The notes: generated from the letters alone by a model not told the origin. A stretch of 64,000 nucleotides of DNA from Candidatus Woesebacteria bacterium (GCA_021208605.1 JAJOJK010000003.1:73481-137480); one strand, 5' to 3'. Numbered from the stretch's first letter, positions 18,602 through 62,890 are shown. Translations and numbers: made by a program.

Positions 18602-18628
18602 GAGAGGGACCGACCCTTAGGCCTATAA
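18602..18628. repeat. REP-like repeat copy (gagagggaccgacccttaggcctataa)
   Basis: Near-identical to 39794..39820 and to the reverse complement of 40292..40315 and 40447..40471. Confidence 0.6.
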
Positions 18629-24648: not shown

Positions 24649-24653
24649 CTTTA

Positions 24654-24870
24654 GGGACGGTCCTTTACTTGTTCACCAGAGGGGAGGAATGTCCTACATC
24701 GAGAAAGGATGGTCCCTCACCTCTTCGCCAGATGGGAAGAATGCTCCACATCGAGAAGGGACGGTCCTTCACCTCTTCACCAGAGGAGAGAAATACTCCA
24801 CCTCAAGAAGGGTTGGTCCCTCTTACTCCCTCTCCCCCTCCACATCAAGAAGGGTTGGACCCTGTCGCGC
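24654..24870. repeat. About four degenerate tandem copies of a ~52-bp repeat
   Basis: Units start at 24654, 24707, 24759 and 24811 (partial), ~80% identical, all beginning gg(a/t)(c/t)ggtcc. They lie in the 5' leader region of the PBP gene. Confidence 0.6.
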
Positions 24871-36938: not shown

Positions 36939-36962
36939 GATAGGGACCCTAAAACTCCCTGC

Positions 36963-36990
36963 TTGACACCTCTCTAACATTTGGTAATAT
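36963..36990 (+). promoter_or_regulatory. Sigma70-like promoter upstream of the 16S gene (TTGACA-16-TAATAT)
   Basis: ttgaca at 36963-36968 and taatat at 36985-36990, ~380 nt before the 16S 5' end. A second candidate (ttgcat..16..cagaat) lies ~40 nt upstream of the 16S. Confidence 0.4.
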
Positions 36991-37372
36991 ACATATCTAC
37001 GAGCCAAGGTCTCAGTGACCGACACCACACTTTATCGGTGTCGCGAGAGAAACCAGTCTCGGTTCCAATTGAGTTCTTTTTGAACAACCGATGTTGGAAG
37101 GCACTGCCAAAGCTGGAAACAGCAACGTAGATGCCGATTTCATATTGTTCTTGAACAAGTAAAGACTCGTCAATTCAAATGATTTATTTCATATGAAAAA
37201 ACAAAACGTGAATATATCTTCCAGATATATTCATAGCTTTCAATAACAACGAAATCGAGACATAGCATCTCGATTTACAATTTTTGATAACAAACAGTAT
37301 ACGGACTGGCAGGATGCATTGGATTTTGCATTCTGCACAATCTGTGTCAGAATCATTTTCCGTTATTTTTTT

Positions 37373-38861
<1,489 letters not shown>

Positions 38862-39023
38862 CTAAGGAGTGTCGGTATGAGTCTCACGCCTCATTCCGGA
38901 TTACGAGCAATCGTAACAAAACTCTGAAGTCCTGTGGACATATGTGCCCAGGCCTTCCTGCCAGTCCGCATGTTGTTTGTGTCAAAAACCCAAATGAGTC
39001 TTTACAAGAACAGATGACAAAAG

Positions 39024-39047
39024 AACCGCTATTGAGCGGTTTTTTTG
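39024..39047. terminator. Rho-independent terminator ~160 nt downstream of the 16S (could also terminate the convergent HD gene)
   Basis: accgct / attg / agcggt followed by ttttttt. Confidence 0.6.
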
Positions 39048-39083
39048 TGCGTGTTTTGATTATGTGCTTTTGATATAAAAAGT

Positions 39084-39611
39084 TTATTGTTGGAAAACAG
39101 AAATCAAAAAAGTAACGTGTTCACTCAGTGGAACGCCAATAAGTTTGGCGCCACTTTCGATATCTTCCCGAGGAACAGCGGCCGCGAACGCTTTGTTTTT
39201 TAATTTCTTTTTTACGGAAGACCACTTCATGCCCTCAAACCTACCTGGGTGAACCTTTGCTACCGCATCCATGAACCCAGAAATTTCATCACAGGCGAAC
39301 AGATACTTTTCGATATTGGTTTCTGGTTGCTTACCGGTTCGTGCAGGTGCATGGGCACGAATAGCATCAAGAATTTCGTCTGAGATCCCGTGTGCTGGCA
39401 ATATTTCGTCACAGGCTTTGTTGGGATGTTCGTCAGGATATTTTTCCCAGTCAAGATCATGGAGAAGGCCAGCAATGTACCAGTCTTCGCTGTTTTCACC
39501 GAGTTTGGTGGCATACGCTTCCATGGCTTGCGCAACCATCTCGCAATGTCGGCGGAGAGCTGGATTATCAATATATTCAGTGAGGAGTTGCTGAGCTTCG
39601 GATTTGGTCAT
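39084..39611 (-). CDS. HD-domain phosphohydrolase
   Basis: HD signature (AGLLHDLDWEKY) with upstream His; 175 aa. Located inside the 16S-23S interval on the opposite strand. Confidence 0.6.
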   Translation of the reverse strand: MTKSEAQQLLTEYIDNPALRRHCEMVAQAMEAYATKLGENSEDWYIAGLLHDLDWEKYPDEHPNKACDEILPAHGISDEILDAIRAHAPARTGKQPETNIEKYLFACDEISGFMDAVAKVHPGRFEGMKWSSVKKKLKNKAFAAAVPREDIESGAKLIGVPLSEHVTFLISVFQQ

Positions 39612-39704
39612 AGGGGCAGTATAGCAAGTGTTGTTTGTAGGGAGCGGTGCGGTTTCTGCTTACGATTTTGGCAATCTATGATACAATCAGTATCTCTTAC
39701 TCTT

Positions 39705-39778
39705 GAGGGTATAGCTCAGTTGGTTAGAGCGCAGTCCTGATAAGACTGAGGTCCCTGGTTCGAGTCCAGGTACCCTCA
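39705..39778 (+). tRNA. tRNA-Ile (anticodon GAT)
   Basis: Cloverleaf gagggta/taccctc acceptor; anticodon loop ctGATaa; T-loop ttcgagt; no encoded CCA. Confidence 0.85.
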
Positions 39779-39793
39779 CTATTTTGTGTTTTT

Positions 39794-39820
39794 GAGAGGG
39801 ACCGACCCTCAGGCCTATAA
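39794..39820. repeat. REP-like repeat copy (gagagggaccgaccctcaggcctataa)
   Basis: Same family as 18602..18628. Abuts the transposase stop codon. Confidence 0.6.
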
Positions 39821-40252
39821 TTTATAACCTCTCCCAACATGTTTCCAGTCTGAAAAGCCAGCATTTATCGGGTTATCAAGTATATATTGTCTCGTTTTGG
39901 CAACTTTCGCTGGCGGTACATACGCAGCTTTGTAAATATCTTGAAAAAGCCTCCCAACTCGTCCGTATTTTTTATTGATATACATGACATATCTGGTCAT
40001 GGTTTTTCGCATGAGGATTTCTATTGCTCTCGTAGTAACCTGGTATACCAGAAAGTGAAAATGGTTTGGCATGAGGCAGAAAGTATCTACAATTACTTCG
40101 CAGTACTCTTCTTGAAGTACCCTGCGCGTAATGGCTCGAAATACTTCATAATCTTGTTCCGAAAAGAATATTTCTTCTTTATTATTTCCACGGTTATATA
40201 TGTGAAAATAGCTGTTTGGTTGGTAATACTTTACCCGATTAATTGCTGGCAT
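39815..40252 (-). CDS. IS200/IS605-family Y1 (HUH) transposase, RAYT-like
   Basis: YFHIYNRGNNKEEIF, CLMPNHFHFLV (HuH motif), ...GRLFQDIYKAAYV (catalytic Tyr region), ILDNPINAGF. 145 aa. Flanked by REP-like repeats on both sides. Confidence 0.8.
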   Translation of the reverse strand: MPAINRVKYYQPNSYFHIYNRGNNKEEIFFSEQDYEVFRAITRRVLQEEYCEVIVDTFCLMPNHFHFLVYQVTTRAIEILMRKTMTRYVMYINKKYGRVGRLFQDIYKAAYVPPAKVAKTRQYILDNPINAGFSDWKHVGRGYKL

Positions 40253-40291
40253 GAAGCGATGGTAGCAAGAGAAGTGAACAAAAATATTACA

Positions 40292-40315
40292 GGCTTGAGG
40301 GTCGGTCCTTCGAGC
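40292..40315. repeat. REP-like repeat copy, inverted orientation
   Basis: Reverse complement gctcgaaggaccgaccctcaagcc matches the REP core ggaccgaccctcaggcc. Confidence 0.55.
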
Positions 40316-40327
40316 TCATAAAAAAAG

Positions 40328-40401
40328 TGGACCCAAGGGGATTCGAACCCCTGACCTCTTCATTGCAAATGAAGCGCTCTAGCCAGCTGAGCTATGGGCC
40401 C
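40328..40401 (-). tRNA. tRNA-Ala (anticodon UGC), on the strand opposite the rRNA genes
   Basis: Reverse complement gggcccatagctcagctggctagagcgcttcatttgcaatgaag...ccttgggtcca. Anticodon loop ttTGCaa; G3:U70 Ala identity pair present. Confidence 0.85.
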
Positions 40402-40446
40402 AAGAAGGGTATTATATCCTACTACTTGGATATTGGTAAGTAATGT

Positions 40447-40471
40447 TTATAGGCCTAAGGGTTGGTCCTTC
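40447..40471. repeat. REP-like repeat copy, inverted orientation (variant)
   Basis: Reverse complement ggaccaacccttaggcctataa matches the REP consensus with one substitution. Confidence 0.5.
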
Positions 40472-40485
40472 ATCCATCGGTCGAT

Positions 40486-42177
40486 CTACCGTCGCAGCAT
40501 AAAGTACACGCCCATCCCCATCAGGCCAAAACCGGTCAAAGCCAAAGCGACCGTATTTTCTATCGCTCCAGCTACTGGCAGCGTTTCTACCGGTGAGCTA
40601 GGAGTGGGGGTTGGATTGACGGCTACGTCACAGAGACAGTCAGTTTCGCCAGTACAGGCGCTGTTACGGCACATGCCGCCGTTACAGACAAGGCCAGAAG
40701 AACAGTCGGCGTTGGTGCTACAGGCGTTGTTACAGCTGGCCAATGGAGTAGGTTGTGGGGTTGGTTCAGGCGTGGCCGAAGGCGTTGGTGTGGCACTTGG
40801 TGTCGGTGTCGGACAGAGACAGTTCGCTTCTTCGGAACAGGAAGGATTGCGACACATGCCGTCGTCGGAACAGGTGAGACCGTCGCCGCAATCGGCATCG
40901 CTCACACAGGCTTCGCTACAAGATGCCGGTGGAGTTGGCGTCGGTGTCGGAGTAGCCTGTGGGGTGGGTTTGGGAGTTGGCTTTGGAGTGGGGTTCGATT
41001 TTTGTGTAGTGGTCGTCGTGGATGGTGCACTGCCACAGCTATTATTTATAATGGAAAATTCTCCACAGAGTTGGCCATCACGGGAACCGCCAACACAGAC
41101 TTGGTCTATTTGCCCACATCCGCCGGCATAGGAAACCGCATCAGCGCGAGAAGACTTGCGAGAGCCATTTTGCTCACAGACGAGTTGTCCATTACTAGTA
41201 GAAGAGGTGTGCAAGCTGTCGCATTTAAAGGCATACCAGCCGGAGCAAGAGCCGCCAGGACATTGTTGGGAACCAGTTTGTCCGGAGTCTTCACACTTAC
41301 GATTTCCTGAGGTGCCCTGACAGACAGCGGTGCCACAGCAGTTGTCGGACAGGCCGCGCTCGGAACCACAGGCTTGTCCAGCGGAGACACAAGCAGTTTT
41401 TCCTGACGATCCGGTGTTGGATCCCGATGACTGCTCAACCCAAGAACCATTTTTACAAACGTACTTTACGCCGTCGCGGGTGCCGGTTTGGCCGTCGTTA
41501 CATTCATTATTTGATTGACCGCCGTCACAAGTGTTGCCGCCGTCGATCCATTGACCAGAACACGTACACTCACAGTTCGCAACACCGTAGTCACCTTTGC
41601 CACAGAGTTTTCGGCCGCCAACGGAACCGCCCCGGACAGAGCTTTTTCGATCGCGACAAGTACTAGAACAATTGCTGGCGTTATAGTTACAACTTCCACC
41701 AGATGAACCACTGCCACCGCTAGAACCAGAACTACCACTGCCACCAGAGCCGCCGCTTTTACAGCCTGCACAACCAGAATCACAGCCTGCAATCCAAGCT
41801 TCCGGATCCGGTTGAGCCGAAGCACCAGCACGACAGTCATTCATACAGGCTTCATAGCTGGCTCGAGGACAGCTACTCGCTTGTTGGCGTAAGTCTTGTT
41901 GTTGCTGCGAAAGATACACTGCCGCACCAATACCAATGAGGACTACCACTGAAACGAAAACAGCGGCAATGATGCCAAAGCGTTTTTTCATGAATTTTTG
42001 CAAACCAGAGAGTGATCTTCCAGAGGATCCAGAAGAACCAGAAGAAGAGGGTCGTGATGAGTTGTTATTTTGCGGTTTTTCTTTTTTAGGCGCCGCCTGT
42101 TTTCCACCTCTTTGATTGGCGTTTTGAATAGTATTAATCACGTCTTGTGATTGTGGTGGAATGTAGGCAGGACTCAT
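40486..42177 (-). CDS. Cys-rich, Pro/Thr-linker surface protein with N-terminal signal anchor and C-terminal LPVAG sorting-signal-like motif
   Basis: N-terminal TM (IIAAVFVSVVVLIGIGAAVYL). Duplicated ~40-aa cysteine module SC(S/N)xACxxxADCxxGLxCxxGMCRNxxCxxExxCLC, separated by PTPTP linkers; Gly/Ser runs. C-terminus ...VETLPVAGAIE + hydrophobic helix + RR (sortase-substrate architecture). Confidence 0.65.
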   Translation of the reverse strand: MSPAYIPPQSQDVINTIQNANQRGGKQAAPKKEKPQNNNSSRPSSSGSSGSSGRSLSGLQKFMKKRFGIIAAVFVSVVVLIGIGAAVYLSQQQQDLRQQASSCPRASYEACMNDCRAGASAQPDPEAWIAGCDSGCAGCKSGGSGGSGSSGSSGGSGSSGGSCNYNASNCSSTCRDRKSSVRGGSVGGRKLCGKGDYGVANCECTCSGQWIDGGNTCDGGQSNNECNDGQTGTRDGVKYVCKNGSWVEQSSGSNTGSSGKTACVSAGQACGSERGLSDNCCGTAVCQGTSGNRKCEDSGQTGSQQCPGGSCSGWYAFKCDSLHTSSTSNGQLVCEQNGSRKSSRADAVSYAGGCGQIDQVCVGGSRDGQLCGEFSIINNSCGSAPSTTTTTQKSNPTPKPTPKPTPQATPTPTPTPPASCSEACVSDADCGDGLTCSDDGMCRNPSCSEEANCLCPTPTPSATPTPSATPEPTPQPTPLASCNNACSTNADCSSGLVCNGGMCRNSACTGETDCLCDVAVNPTPTPSSPVETLPVAGAIENTVALALTGFGLMGMGVYFMLRR

Positions 42178-42373
42178 TACCGTATAATGGCAAATTTTTT
42201 GTTAAGAAACAAGACGCTGCTCGTGCGAACACACCGATACACATATAACGATACATATATAAGGAGTACGCACTCAGAACGAAGTCAAAGCGACATATTA
42301 AGGGTTTCTATTGGACTTTTTTACTATAAATACGTGTTTTTCAAAAACCAGTGCTCCAGAGAAGTTTCTTCTC

Positions 42374-42407
42374 AAAACTCATACTTGCACCCCGTGGCAT
42401 GGATGGT
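42374..42407 (+). promoter_or_regulatory. Sigma70-like promoter candidate upstream of the 23S (TTGCAC-16-TATACT)
   Basis: ttgcac cccgtggcatggatgg tatact, ~350 nt before the 23S 5' end. Confidence 0.35.
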
Positions 42408-42758
42408 ATACTACTAATCCTCTGCACATGACACTTGTTTCGGTCAGGCAGATGAGGGACAACCTTCACCGGTCTCTCTCATTTACCAAAGAAACACTTT
42501 TACTTGCTACATGCTCAGGTTCCTTGTGAACGAGCCCCTGTACACGTCATAACGCATTAAGCCTATGGCGCTTACGTGTATTGTGCGGGGAACAGAGTGG
42601 TGACACTTTGTCGCTCGTGAACAAGTAGAGATTTAAACAAGAATTTAAACTTAAAGTAAAGTTTTCAAAAACGGTCGCTGCGATTGTTTTTTTGGTTTAC
42701 CAAAACAGCAATCAATATATATCAGCAGTCGTTTCATGAGAATTGATCAAATATATCG

Positions 42759-45655
<2,897 letters not shown>

Positions 45656-45891
45656 TGTTGATCAGTCCGTGTGAAACGGACGCTTACATGCAAAAATCTG
45701 TTGATATTTCATAGTGATCGTAGCTGAGAGTAATTTACTCTAAGACCTCTTGTCAGAATTGATTCGTCAATTCTTATCTCTACTTGTTCAGGGGTGATAA
45801 TTCTGTCATCCTGAACATGTACATACGAAAAAGTTTCGCTGGCTATTACTGATGGGCCAGCCCAATTTTTTCGACAGCGAAGACGCTTTTA

Positions 45892-46008
45892 TTCCGGTCT
45901 CTGGAGCGCAGTGGAACCAACTCTTTCCATTCCGAACAGAGTCTTGAAACGCTGCAGCGGTGAAGGTACTGCTTGGGCAACTGAGTGGTAGAATAGCTCG
46001 AGGCCGGA
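45892..46008 (+). rRNA. rrf: 5S ribosomal RNA
   Basis: Helix I tccggtctc/gaggccgga; conserved loop ccattccgaacagagtcttgaaacgc...ggtagaatagc. Confidence 0.75.
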
Positions 46009-46188
46009 ATAAAGGCGTTTTTTGTGCTTTTTGAACATTTTTCTCGATTGTTGAGCTTTGCTCACTCATGAGAGAAAAATGTTCAAAAAACACCGATGAA
46101 TAAAGTGACTGAGTGAGCAAAGCTCAACAGCCACAAAAAATTCTTCTGGTACCGATCTCATCTGTGTAAATAGGACACAGAATTGCTT

Positions 46189-56646: not shown

Positions 56647-56735
56647 GGAGGGTTACCTTTCTCTGCAACTACCTCTGGAAAGGTTACCCTAAGTCTCCCT
56701 TTCTTGAGGAAACTAAATTGTAAGGTAACCTTCAA
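56647..56735. repeat. Array of three GGTTACC/GGTAACC-core motifs plus an inverted-repeat arm (ctctgcaactacctctgg)
   Basis: Motifs at 56651-57, 56682-88, 56724-30. The arm at 56661-56678 is the reverse complement of 62859-62872 and its flanks (~29/33 identity). Confidence 0.6.
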
Positions 56736-62799: not shown

Positions 62800-62890
62800 G
62801 TATTTAAGGTTACCTTTCGTTTTAGTTTTCCCTGGCAGGGTTACCTTAAGGTAACCTGCCAGAGGTAGTTGCGGAGGAAGGTTACCTTCT
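62800..62890. repeat. Array of four GGTTACC/GGTAACC-core motifs plus an inverted-repeat arm (ccagaggtagttgc)
   Basis: Motifs at 62808-14, 62839-45, 62850-56, 62880-86. 62845-62878 is the reverse complement of 56661-56693. Confidence 0.6.

Follow-up and report, generated by a model that had tools for sequence, protein, structure and literature searches.

Inverted 27-nt repeats, a RAYT-type nuclease gene and a flipped tRNA-Ala gene in the rRNA region of a Candidatus Woesebacteria bacterium

The 64,000-nt stretch of a Candidatus Woesebacteria bacterium genome analyzed here (GCA_021208605.1 JAJOJK010000003.1:73481-137480; the window, within which all positions are counted) carries an rRNA block at 37367-46009. 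Between its 16S and 23S genes lie a small gene for a Y1-type nuclease with a histidine-hydrophobic-histidine (HUH) motif, copies of a 27-nt repeat, and a tRNA-Ala gene of unusual orientation. Read along the strand of the rRNA genes, 16S is followed by an HD-domain gene, tRNA-Ile(GAU), the Y1 gene, tRNA-Ala(UGC) and a gene for a Cys-rich membrane-anchored protein, before 23S and 5S are reached (Table 1). The 16S-23S interval measures 3.9 kb, and its three protein genes are all on the opposite strand. An earlier interpretation, made by a model from the DNA alone (the sequence-only reading), had called it an rRNA spacer. The locus does lie between 16S and 23S, but its length, its protein genes and the arrangement in relatives, where 23S is not adjacent to 16S, do not suit that name. 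Our subject is whether the nuclease gene and the repeats form a module of the kind in which repetitive extragenic palindromes (REP) accompany a REP-associated tyrosine transposase (RAYT), and whether the tRNA-Ala gene was flipped through these repeats.

Table 1. Features of the locus, and further repeats of the window referred to in the text (ORF, open reading frame)
Feature	Position	Strand	Remarks
Repeat copy 1 (solo)	18602-18628	+	Exact match to the 27-mer; 21 kb from the Y1 gene; in a 64-nt gap between the stop of an exonuclease-like ORF (18598) and the ATG of the next ORF (18663)
Repeat copy 2	39794-39820	+	Exact match; 14 nt past tRNA-Ile; covers the Y1 ORF stop and last two codons
Repeat copy 3	40287-40313	-	22/27 bases agree with the 27-mer; precedes the Y1 ATG by 34 nt and follows the 3' end of tRNA-Ala by 13 nt
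Repeat copy 4	40447-40473	-	23/27 bases agree with the 27-mer; 12 nt after the Cys-rich ORF stop, just upstream of the tRNA-Ala promoter
HUH/Y1 nuclease, RAYT type, 145 aa	39815-40252	-	H64-x-H66, Y123; short subfamily of 142-159 aa
16S	37367-38861	+	
HD-domain gene (HD hydrolase)	39084-39611	-	
tRNA-Ile(GAU)	39705-39779	+	Syntenic and identical with relative L007; conserved flank ends at its 3' end
tRNA-Ala(UGC)	40327-40401	-	Between copies 3 and 4; opposite to tRNA-Ile, 16S and 23S
tRNA-Ala promoter-like site	40411-40439	-	TTACCA-17-TATAAT
Cys-rich membrane-anchored ORF, 563 aa	40486-42177	-	
23S, then 5S	42760-45651 (23S)	+	
Putative inverted segment	39821-40446		Contains the Y1 gene, copy 3 and tRNA-Ala with its promoter; mutually inverted copies 2 and 4 lie at its two ends
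Family C (possibly related)	56649-56732		Two copies 31 nt apart in the gap between the Obg gene and tRNA-Ala(GGC); a single third copy
Family C cluster (possibly related)	62806-62888		Four copies, A-A-B-B, 31-nt spacing, intergenic gap
Tandem array (possibly related)	24650-24866	-	Five 52-nt units, each opening with AGGGACCRWCCCT

The 27-mer GAGAGGGACCGACCCTYAGGCCTATAA occurs exactly at two direct sites, copies 1 and 2, which the sequence-only reading had already pointed out, and at no other site of the window; 0 of 100 shuffled sequences matched it, even with up to three mismatches permitted. The two inverted copies which that reading had placed at 40292 and 40447 are both real, but they have diverged, and copy 3 lies at 40287-40313. 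By our own estimate, which assumes equal base frequencies over 128,000 positions, a match as good as 22/27 is expected by chance about 1e-4 times. A search with nhmmer (E<=1e-6), using a model built from these same four sites, found the four and no fifth in the 64 kb. Copies 3 and 4 are direct repeats of each other, and both are inverted relative to copy 2, with which they form arms of 25-26 nt that are 88% complementary. The Y1 gene sits between copies 2 and 3, for which this complementarity extends over 26 nt. All four copies are extragenic, apart from a 6-nt overlap of copy 2 with the end of the Y1 ORF, whose stop codon TAG (39815-39817) falls within the repeat. Each copy is found 5-15 nt past the 3' end of a gene on the same strand, with the next transcription unit just downstream.

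The 145-aa product of the Y1 gene matches the Pfam family Y1_Tnp (PF01797, E 1.3e-10). No homologue in alignments of 24 and 36 sequences departs from the HUH residues H64 and H66 or the catalytic Y123. Its sole match in NCBIfam is NF047646 REP_Tyr_transpos (E 1e-8, 35 bits, with the family cut-off at 80 bits). Since a single-sequence search of the PDB found no match (nor did one of PHROGs), the PDB was searched with a family profile, which matched E. coli TnpA-REP (4ER8) at E 8e-5 and the TnpA of ISDra2 (2XM3) at E 9e-3. An AlphaFold (AF2) model with a mean predicted local distance difference test score (pLDDT) of 93.9 superposed best on 4ER8, with a template modelling (TM) score of 0.71 and a root-mean-square deviation (rmsd) of 3.0 Å over 141 columns. 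With transposase structures of the IS200/IS605 family the TM score was 0.46-0.61 and the rmsd 5-13 Å; Foldseek E-values were similar for 4ER8 and the IS200/IS605 TnpAs despite this gap. The short subfamily of 142-159 aa is nested in a large set of Patescibacteria proteins of about 208 aa, which some pipelines label RayT. In a collection of 5.8 billion proteins no paralogue was found: beyond the same locus in three assemblies, the nearest proteins are at most 51% identical, the genome being a metagenome-assembled genome (MAG). Profile, structure model and NCBIfam match together support a RAYT-type rather than an IS200-type gene. The earlier assignment to HUH/Y1, RAYT-type enzymes is supported, and its label "IS200-like" fits less well, both profile and model being nearer to 4ER8. 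By analogy with TnpA-REP, the 145-aa enzyme would act on the 27-nt repeats.

Whether enzyme and repeat belong together was examined at the loci of related genes. The comparison covered the window and eight other loci of the short subfamily (L016, L017, L018, L020, L021, L022, L024, L026). Short, lineage-specific inverted repeats bracket the Y1 gene in seven of these nine lineages (the window, L022, L020, L021, L024, L026 and L018). They read GAAGGTCWGACCTT in L020, AGGATCGTCCTC in L021, GGGTCRGACCC in L024 and AAGGTTSAACCTY in L026, while in L018 the Y1 gene and tRNA-Ala are enclosed by arms of 65 nt matching at 95%. In L016 and L017 a palindromic cluster of four copies is found on the upstream side only. 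The REP-RAYT arrangement that the sequence-only reading had recognized, with the transposase gene between a direct and an inverted copy, is thus seen here and in six further lineages. The closest homologue (51% identity) is that of L022, where the gene lies between inverted copies of AGAGAAAGGCCTAGCCCATAGGCCGATAA, which aligns with GAGAGGGACCGACCCTCAGGCCTATAA of the window. Both loci keep one register: the upstream repeat and the ATG are 33-34 nt apart, and TTATAG|GC in the downstream repeat contains the stop codon. In L022 the module is found between MnmA and the 16S promoter, where it replaces 742 bp and is not a plain insertion, and its homology with the window stops exactly at both repeats.

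As a control, the best inverted repeat between the 130-nt flanks was scored for 112 genes from seven loci. The top four scores (17, 16, 14 and 11) all belonged to RAYT genes, and the other 107 genes reached at most 9. The 38 distinct cores drawn from nine repeat sets have in common a palindromic RGGT-N3-ACCY, with G-C fixed at two mirrored pairs and A-T/G-C covariation at the third, a level reached by 14 of 2000 shuffles. These data support the view that other lineages of the short subfamily conserve the module "repeat, gene, inverted repeat". Such bracketing of the gene, by repeats whose sequence varies as the protein lineage does, is the defining trait of REP/RAYT systems. The REP/RAYT reading is supported in turn, because lineage-matched inverted repeats flank the gene and the top control scores are all those of RAYT genes.

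The orientation of tRNA-Ala was compared with that in relatives found via the HD protein (L007, L009, L011), whose 16S is 97.5% (L007) and 87% (L011) identical to that of the window. In all three, 16S is followed by the HD gene on the opposite strand and by co-oriented tRNA-Ile and tRNA-Ala genes 125-220 nt apart, and neither a Y1 gene nor the repeat is present. The sequence-only reading had flagged the opposite strand of tRNA-Ala as unusual and had called for an alignment with orthologous loci; the relatives indeed do not share the inverted gene. Downstream of tRNA-Ala, L007 has two ordinary terminators and then the convergent orthologue of the Cys-rich gene. A blastn comparison with L007 found tRNA-Ile with its promoter and the Cys-rich gene collinear, and tRNA-Ala alone in the opposite sense. 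In its present orientation tRNA-Ala retains an intact promoter and T-run. Its -10 region and leader, GATATAATA.CCTTCTT, are common to the window and L011, so the inverted piece is native DNA. Conservation of the flanks stops 14 nt short of copy 2 and 12 nt short of copy 4, which puts the breakpoints within 15 nt of both repeats. The tRNA-Ala sequence itself is 100% identical to that of the distant L018 and differs at 4 positions from that of the close L007. Its arrival with the module by horizontal transfer was considered and rejected, since three of the four L007 differences are unique to L007 and the window promoter is common to L011.

An inversion or insertion driven by these repeats had been suggested from the outset, with tRNA-Ala noted as lying between two inverted copies. 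The inversion relative to relatives holds, but the pair around tRNA-Ala is excluded: copies 3 and 4 cannot have inverted the gene between them because they are direct to each other. Only recombination between copy 2 (+) and copy 4 (-) restores the ancestral order, and the Y1 gene then flips along with tRNA-Ala. Flipping these 626 bp back yields tRNA-Ile, repeat, tRNA-Ala, repeat, Y1 gene, inverted repeat and Cys-rich gene. An uninverted composite of this kind, consisting of a repeat, two tRNA-Ala genes, a repeat, the Y1 gene and an inverted repeat, exists in L020 at its tRNA-Ala(GGC)/(CGC) locus, which is syntenic with 56.7-57.2 kb of the window. A single repeat-to-repeat inversion is the most economical account.

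The reading we lean towards is therefore that of a REP/RAYT-type module with cognate 27-nt repeats, in which tRNA-Ala was probably flipped by recombination between copies 2 and 4. It would rest on a single-copy gene for an HUH/Y1 nuclease of single-stranded DNA, bracketed by inverted cognate repeats (copies 2 and 3). If the enzyme works like E. coli TnpA-REP, it would bind the repeats on single-stranded DNA, nick them there and thereby spread or rearrange the copies. The ancestral order would have been 16S, the HD gene on the opposite strand, tRNA-Ile, tRNA-Ala and the convergent Cys-rich gene. The module may then have settled downstream of tRNA-Ala, giving repeat - tRNA-Ala - repeat - Y1 gene - inverted repeat, as in L020. 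Recombination of the outermost inverted repeats, now copies 2 and 4, would subsequently have flipped the 626 bp of 39821-40446 and left tRNA-Ala on the opposite strand with its own promoter and T-run. We infer that the module arrived before the inversion took place, and that the inversion passed through the repeats, by the action of either the enzyme or host recombination; the enzyme itself may have driven it.

Several observations weigh against this reading. REPs proper are extragenic imperfect palindromes that form stable stem-loops and number tens to hundreds per genome. Of the 27-mer, the 64 kb of the window contain only four copies, and three of these lie at the module. Public genome and metagenome collections (the source genome not among them) gave 0 matches to the exact 27-mer. 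A degenerate pattern gave 1 + 2 matches in the same collections, in high-GC contexts and lacking the TATAA tail, which were judged to be due to chance. Since it is absent from these collections save for such chance-like matches, the 27-mer is lineage-specific. The NCBIfam score of the protein is far under the family cut-off. Only one orientation was seen throughout the three assemblies, with no polymorphism, and RecA-type recombination acts poorly on repeats of 27 nt and 85% identity. The hairpins of copies 1 and 2 are weak, with stems of 4-5 bp (copy 2: 5-bp stem, -4.7 kcal/mol, z -2.4; copy 1: -3.0 kcal/mol), and copies 3 and 4 do not fold; the L022 repeat folds in another register than the 27-mer of the window. 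Neither GTAG nor CGTC stands at a fixed position in or beside the four copies, whereas a conserved GTAG (or CGTC) tetranucleotide at one repeat end is a hallmark of REPs (PMC3733652). The 27-mer family was also seen only as singlets in the window. "REP" is consequently used for the 27-mer as an analogy, and not as an established membership.

The first alternative to be weighed is that the repeats are cis-elements of the host, such as sites where a regulator or nucleoid protein binds, or elements in the promoters or 3' ends of highly expressed genes, with the Y1 protein a bystander or a domesticated binder and the inversion unrelated to transposase chemistry. We consider this unlikely, even though the placement of the copies speaks for it: all follow a gene 3' end at 5-15 nt and precede the next transcription unit. 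Copy 2 with the two T's before it (39792-39821, +) reads TTGAGA-18-TATAAT, which agrees with the sigma-70 consensus at 11/12 positions and is aimed antisense into the Y1 gene. Related palindromes lie directly upstream of the -35 elements of the tRNA-Ala(UGC), tRNA-Ala(GGC) and 16S promoters; clusters are spaced by 31 or 52 nt, about 3 and 5 helical turns; and one such site is kept at the same position in the distant L020. The host-element explanation leaves several things unexplained, namely the bracketing of the Y1 gene in 7/9 lineages, which 107 other genes lack, the variation of the repeat sequence from one protein lineage to another, and the invariance of the HUH and Tyr residues. The promoter-like likeness does not extend beyond copy 2, copies 1, 3 and 4 having no -35 element. 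No T-run follows any copy, and the same tRNAs of the relatives use ordinary terminators that lack the motif. An intrinsic terminator or 3'-processing element was rejected as the principal explanation on these last grounds and on the weakness of the hairpin. An Rfam scan of 39600-40600 (E<=1) returned nothing on the repeats. A derivation of the 27-mer from the T-arm of tRNA-Ala (AGGGG-N7-CCCCT) was also considered and set aside as speculation, the resemblance being too short to test. In the window, a palindrome TAGGGACCCTA (36941-36990) precedes by 12 nt a 16S promoter close to consensus, TTGACA-16-TAATAT with TG, at the same place as the upstream repeat of the L022 Y1 module.

A second possibility is that the unit of about 520 bp formed by repeat, Y1 gene and inverted repeat is an autonomous IS200-like element that moved recently between tRNA-Ile and tRNA-Ala, the solo repeats being its footprints. 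The protein does belong to Pfam Y1_Tnp, the unit occupies different sites in L022 (MnmA/16S) and in the window (between the tRNAs), and homology stops exactly at the repeats. Members of the IS200/IS605 family typically occur as several near-identical copies, have direct subterminal hairpin ends and lack terminal inverted repeats. The TnpA enzymes of this family (IS608, ISDra2; 2VJV, 2XM3) share the HUH/Y1 fold and the Pfam family with the window protein, for which a hairpin-guided single-strand chemistry may likewise be expected. Unlike them, the unit described here was seen as a single copy, none of the assemblies containing a near-identical paralogue; it has no TnpB, and its ends are inverted repeats rather than direct subterminal hairpins. 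Its protein fits the IS200/IS605 TnpA structures worse, with TM scores of 0.55-0.61 and an rmsd of 5-12 Å, and both sequence profile and model are nearer to TnpA-REP. In L022 the unit replaces 742 bp instead of inserting, and insertion alone cannot invert tRNA-Ala, so that we regard an IS200-like element as decidedly unlikely. The locus does not resemble an invertible switch either: its neighbors are the HD hydrolase, the Y1 gene and the Cys-rich membrane protein, with no serine or tyrosine recombinase among them, and three assemblies show one orientation. Finally, although MAG rRNA regions are often misassembled and inverted repeats border the segment, an assembly artefact at this repeat-rich locus is very improbable, because GCA_021209405.1, GCA_021208925.1 and an independently built Logan contig have the identical, collinear arrangement at 99.9% identity, the 27-nt repeats are much shorter than sequencing reads, and the tRNA-Ala promoter and T-run are intact in the present orientation.

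To our knowledge, RAYT/REP systems have been studied almost only in Proteobacteria, and our literature search found no paper describing them in the Candidate Phyla Radiation (CPR). The E. coli system of REPs and bacterial interspersed mosaic elements (BIME) with TnpA-REP is reportedly the subject of work by Ton-Hoang and colleagues from 2012. In both it and the window, an HUH/Y1 gene, single-copy there and apparently so here, is flanked by inverted short extragenic repeats. Its TnpA-REP, the structure of which is 4ER8 (Messing et al., 2012, PMC3479197), gave both the best structural superposition and the best sequence-profile match for the window protein. The latter differs in its length of 145 aa and is only about 16% identical, with a score below the NCBIfam cut-off. 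Compared with E. coli REPs, the window repeat is 27 nt long with a 4-5-bp stem and no GTAG, occurs as singlets and not as BIME pairs, takes in the stop codon of the nuclease gene, and numbers four copies in 64 kb. The Pseudomonas systems of RAYTs and REP doublets forming hairpins (REPINs) combine lineage-specific flanking repeats with a nuclease that is single-copy and vertically inherited, as the present one appears to be (PMC3116915, PMC5581495). There, repeat doublets or clusters occur elsewhere in the genome; here, family C (see below) and doublets in L020 and L026 take that place. Bertels et al. sort RAYTs into groups and find flanking 16-mers to be very abundant in Groups 2 and 3 alone, the remaining groups having few (PMC3116915, PMC5581495); in its few flanking-repeat copies the present case is like the latter. 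In contrast to Pseudomonas REPINs, the clusters consist of an 11-13-bp palindrome in direct pairs with a fixed 31-nt period, and not of two long inverted REPs, and the host, a CPR bacterium, has a genome of about 1 Mb.

The local rearrangement described here is solid, and the RAYT variant is modestly new. It would bring RAYT/REP logic to a minimal CPR form, in which the enzyme has 145 aa and the palindromic core of the repeat 11-13 bp. It also has a datable outcome, an essential tRNA gene flipped inside a genus-level lineage, in which the relative with 97.5% identical 16S keeps the ancestral order. The surroundings of the module add a further aspect. The Y1 gene is beside tRNA-Ala in 5/9 lineages: in the window, L016, L017 and L018 (UGC) and in L020 (GGC, CGC). 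It stands at the edge of an rRNA gene in 5/9 as well, namely in the window, upstream of 23S in L016-L018 and upstream of 16S in L022; L021, L024 and L026 have neither adjacency. Since L016-L018 are related, fewer of these placements are independent, and the recurrence of the subfamily beside tRNA-Ala and rRNA genes should be taken as a lead, not as a result. It is common for Patescibacteria to have unlinked rRNA genes, "unlinked" being defined by a 1500-bp rule (Brewer et al., 10.1101/705046). The 3.9 kb between 16S and 23S in the window count as unlinked by this rule, and the relatives have 23S elsewhere. In the same paper the words "transposase" and "mechanism" have 0 occurrences. The presence of the module at rRNA-block edges and tRNA-Ala genes in several lineages thus offers a testable lead on the broken-up rRNA operons of Patescibacteria. 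It is tempting to speculate that short Y1 nucleases and RGGT-N3-ACCY mini-palindromes form a vertically inherited, CPR-wide REPIN/RAYT-like system that prefers the vicinity of stable-RNA genes (tRNA-Ala with three different anticodons, the 16S promoter, the 23S leader) and breaks up and reshuffles Patescibacteria rRNA operons; we hold this to be quite unlikely. In a variant of this idea, co-option would have made the Y1 protein a binder of these sites upstream of stable-RNA promoters. If the association reflects mere tolerance of insertions near RNA genes, the finding remains an ordinary repeat-mediated rearrangement.

Further features of the rRNA region and its relatives may be recorded here. 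Promoter-like sites of their own precede tRNA-Ile, tRNA-Ala and probably 23S (TTGCAC-16-TATACT near 42384-42411, read by eye). Besides the window, the loci L007, L009, L011 and L018 were covered: in relatives, the gene next to 16S is always the HD gene, on the opposite strand, and no 23S lies within 8-10 kb of 16S. The 563-aa ORF has no Pfam domain; an N-terminal membrane segment is followed by Gly/Ser and Pro/Thr linkers and repeated Cys-rich modules, and its C-terminal anchor, TGFGLMGxG..F.LRR, is kept in the L007 orthologue.

Other repeat families of the window are possibly related to the 27-mer. The palindrome of family C, AAGGTTACCTT (11 nt), has seven sites at two intergenic loci, compared with 1.2 expected. 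At the first locus, the third copy adjoins the tRNA-Ala(GGC) promoter, just upstream of it: TGGTATAAT. L020 carries its own Y1-associated repeat at the matching positions, the neighboring genes being only 65-72% identical. The cluster at the second locus folds at -21.9 kcal/mol (z -5.1), and its A-A-B-B architecture is also found directly upstream of the Y1 genes in L016-L018 and L024. The 52-nt array occupies a divergent promoter region upstream of a gene for a class A penicillin-binding protein, its last unit ending about 24 nt before the TATAAT that directly precedes the ATG. Its likeness to the 5' half of the 27-mer is marginal (best unit, E 0.039). With one independent event set against about one expected, membership of the array in the 27-mer family was rejected, and the array is kept as possibly related.

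Three observations concern the Y1 loci of other lineages. In L016 (5823-5843 and 5973-5993; also in L014) the 3' end of tRNA-Ala is duplicated as a perfect 21-nt direct repeat, comprising 17 nt of the tRNA and 4 beyond. The two copies are 150 nt apart, beside the Y1 gene and a 184-aa neighbor, and the duplication looks like a break or integration footprint at the boundary of T-arm and acceptor. An ORF of 179-184 aa follows the Y1 gene by 30-95 nt in L014 (1458-2012), L016 (5261-5815) and L017 (1256-1795); it has no match in Pfam, NCBIfam or PHROGs and is absent from the window and L018. The 23S gene of L016 (385-4161) contains an insertion of about 700 nt with an ORF for a LAGLIDADG homing endonuclease (1346-1996), and such insertions are often found in the rRNA genes of CPR bacteria.

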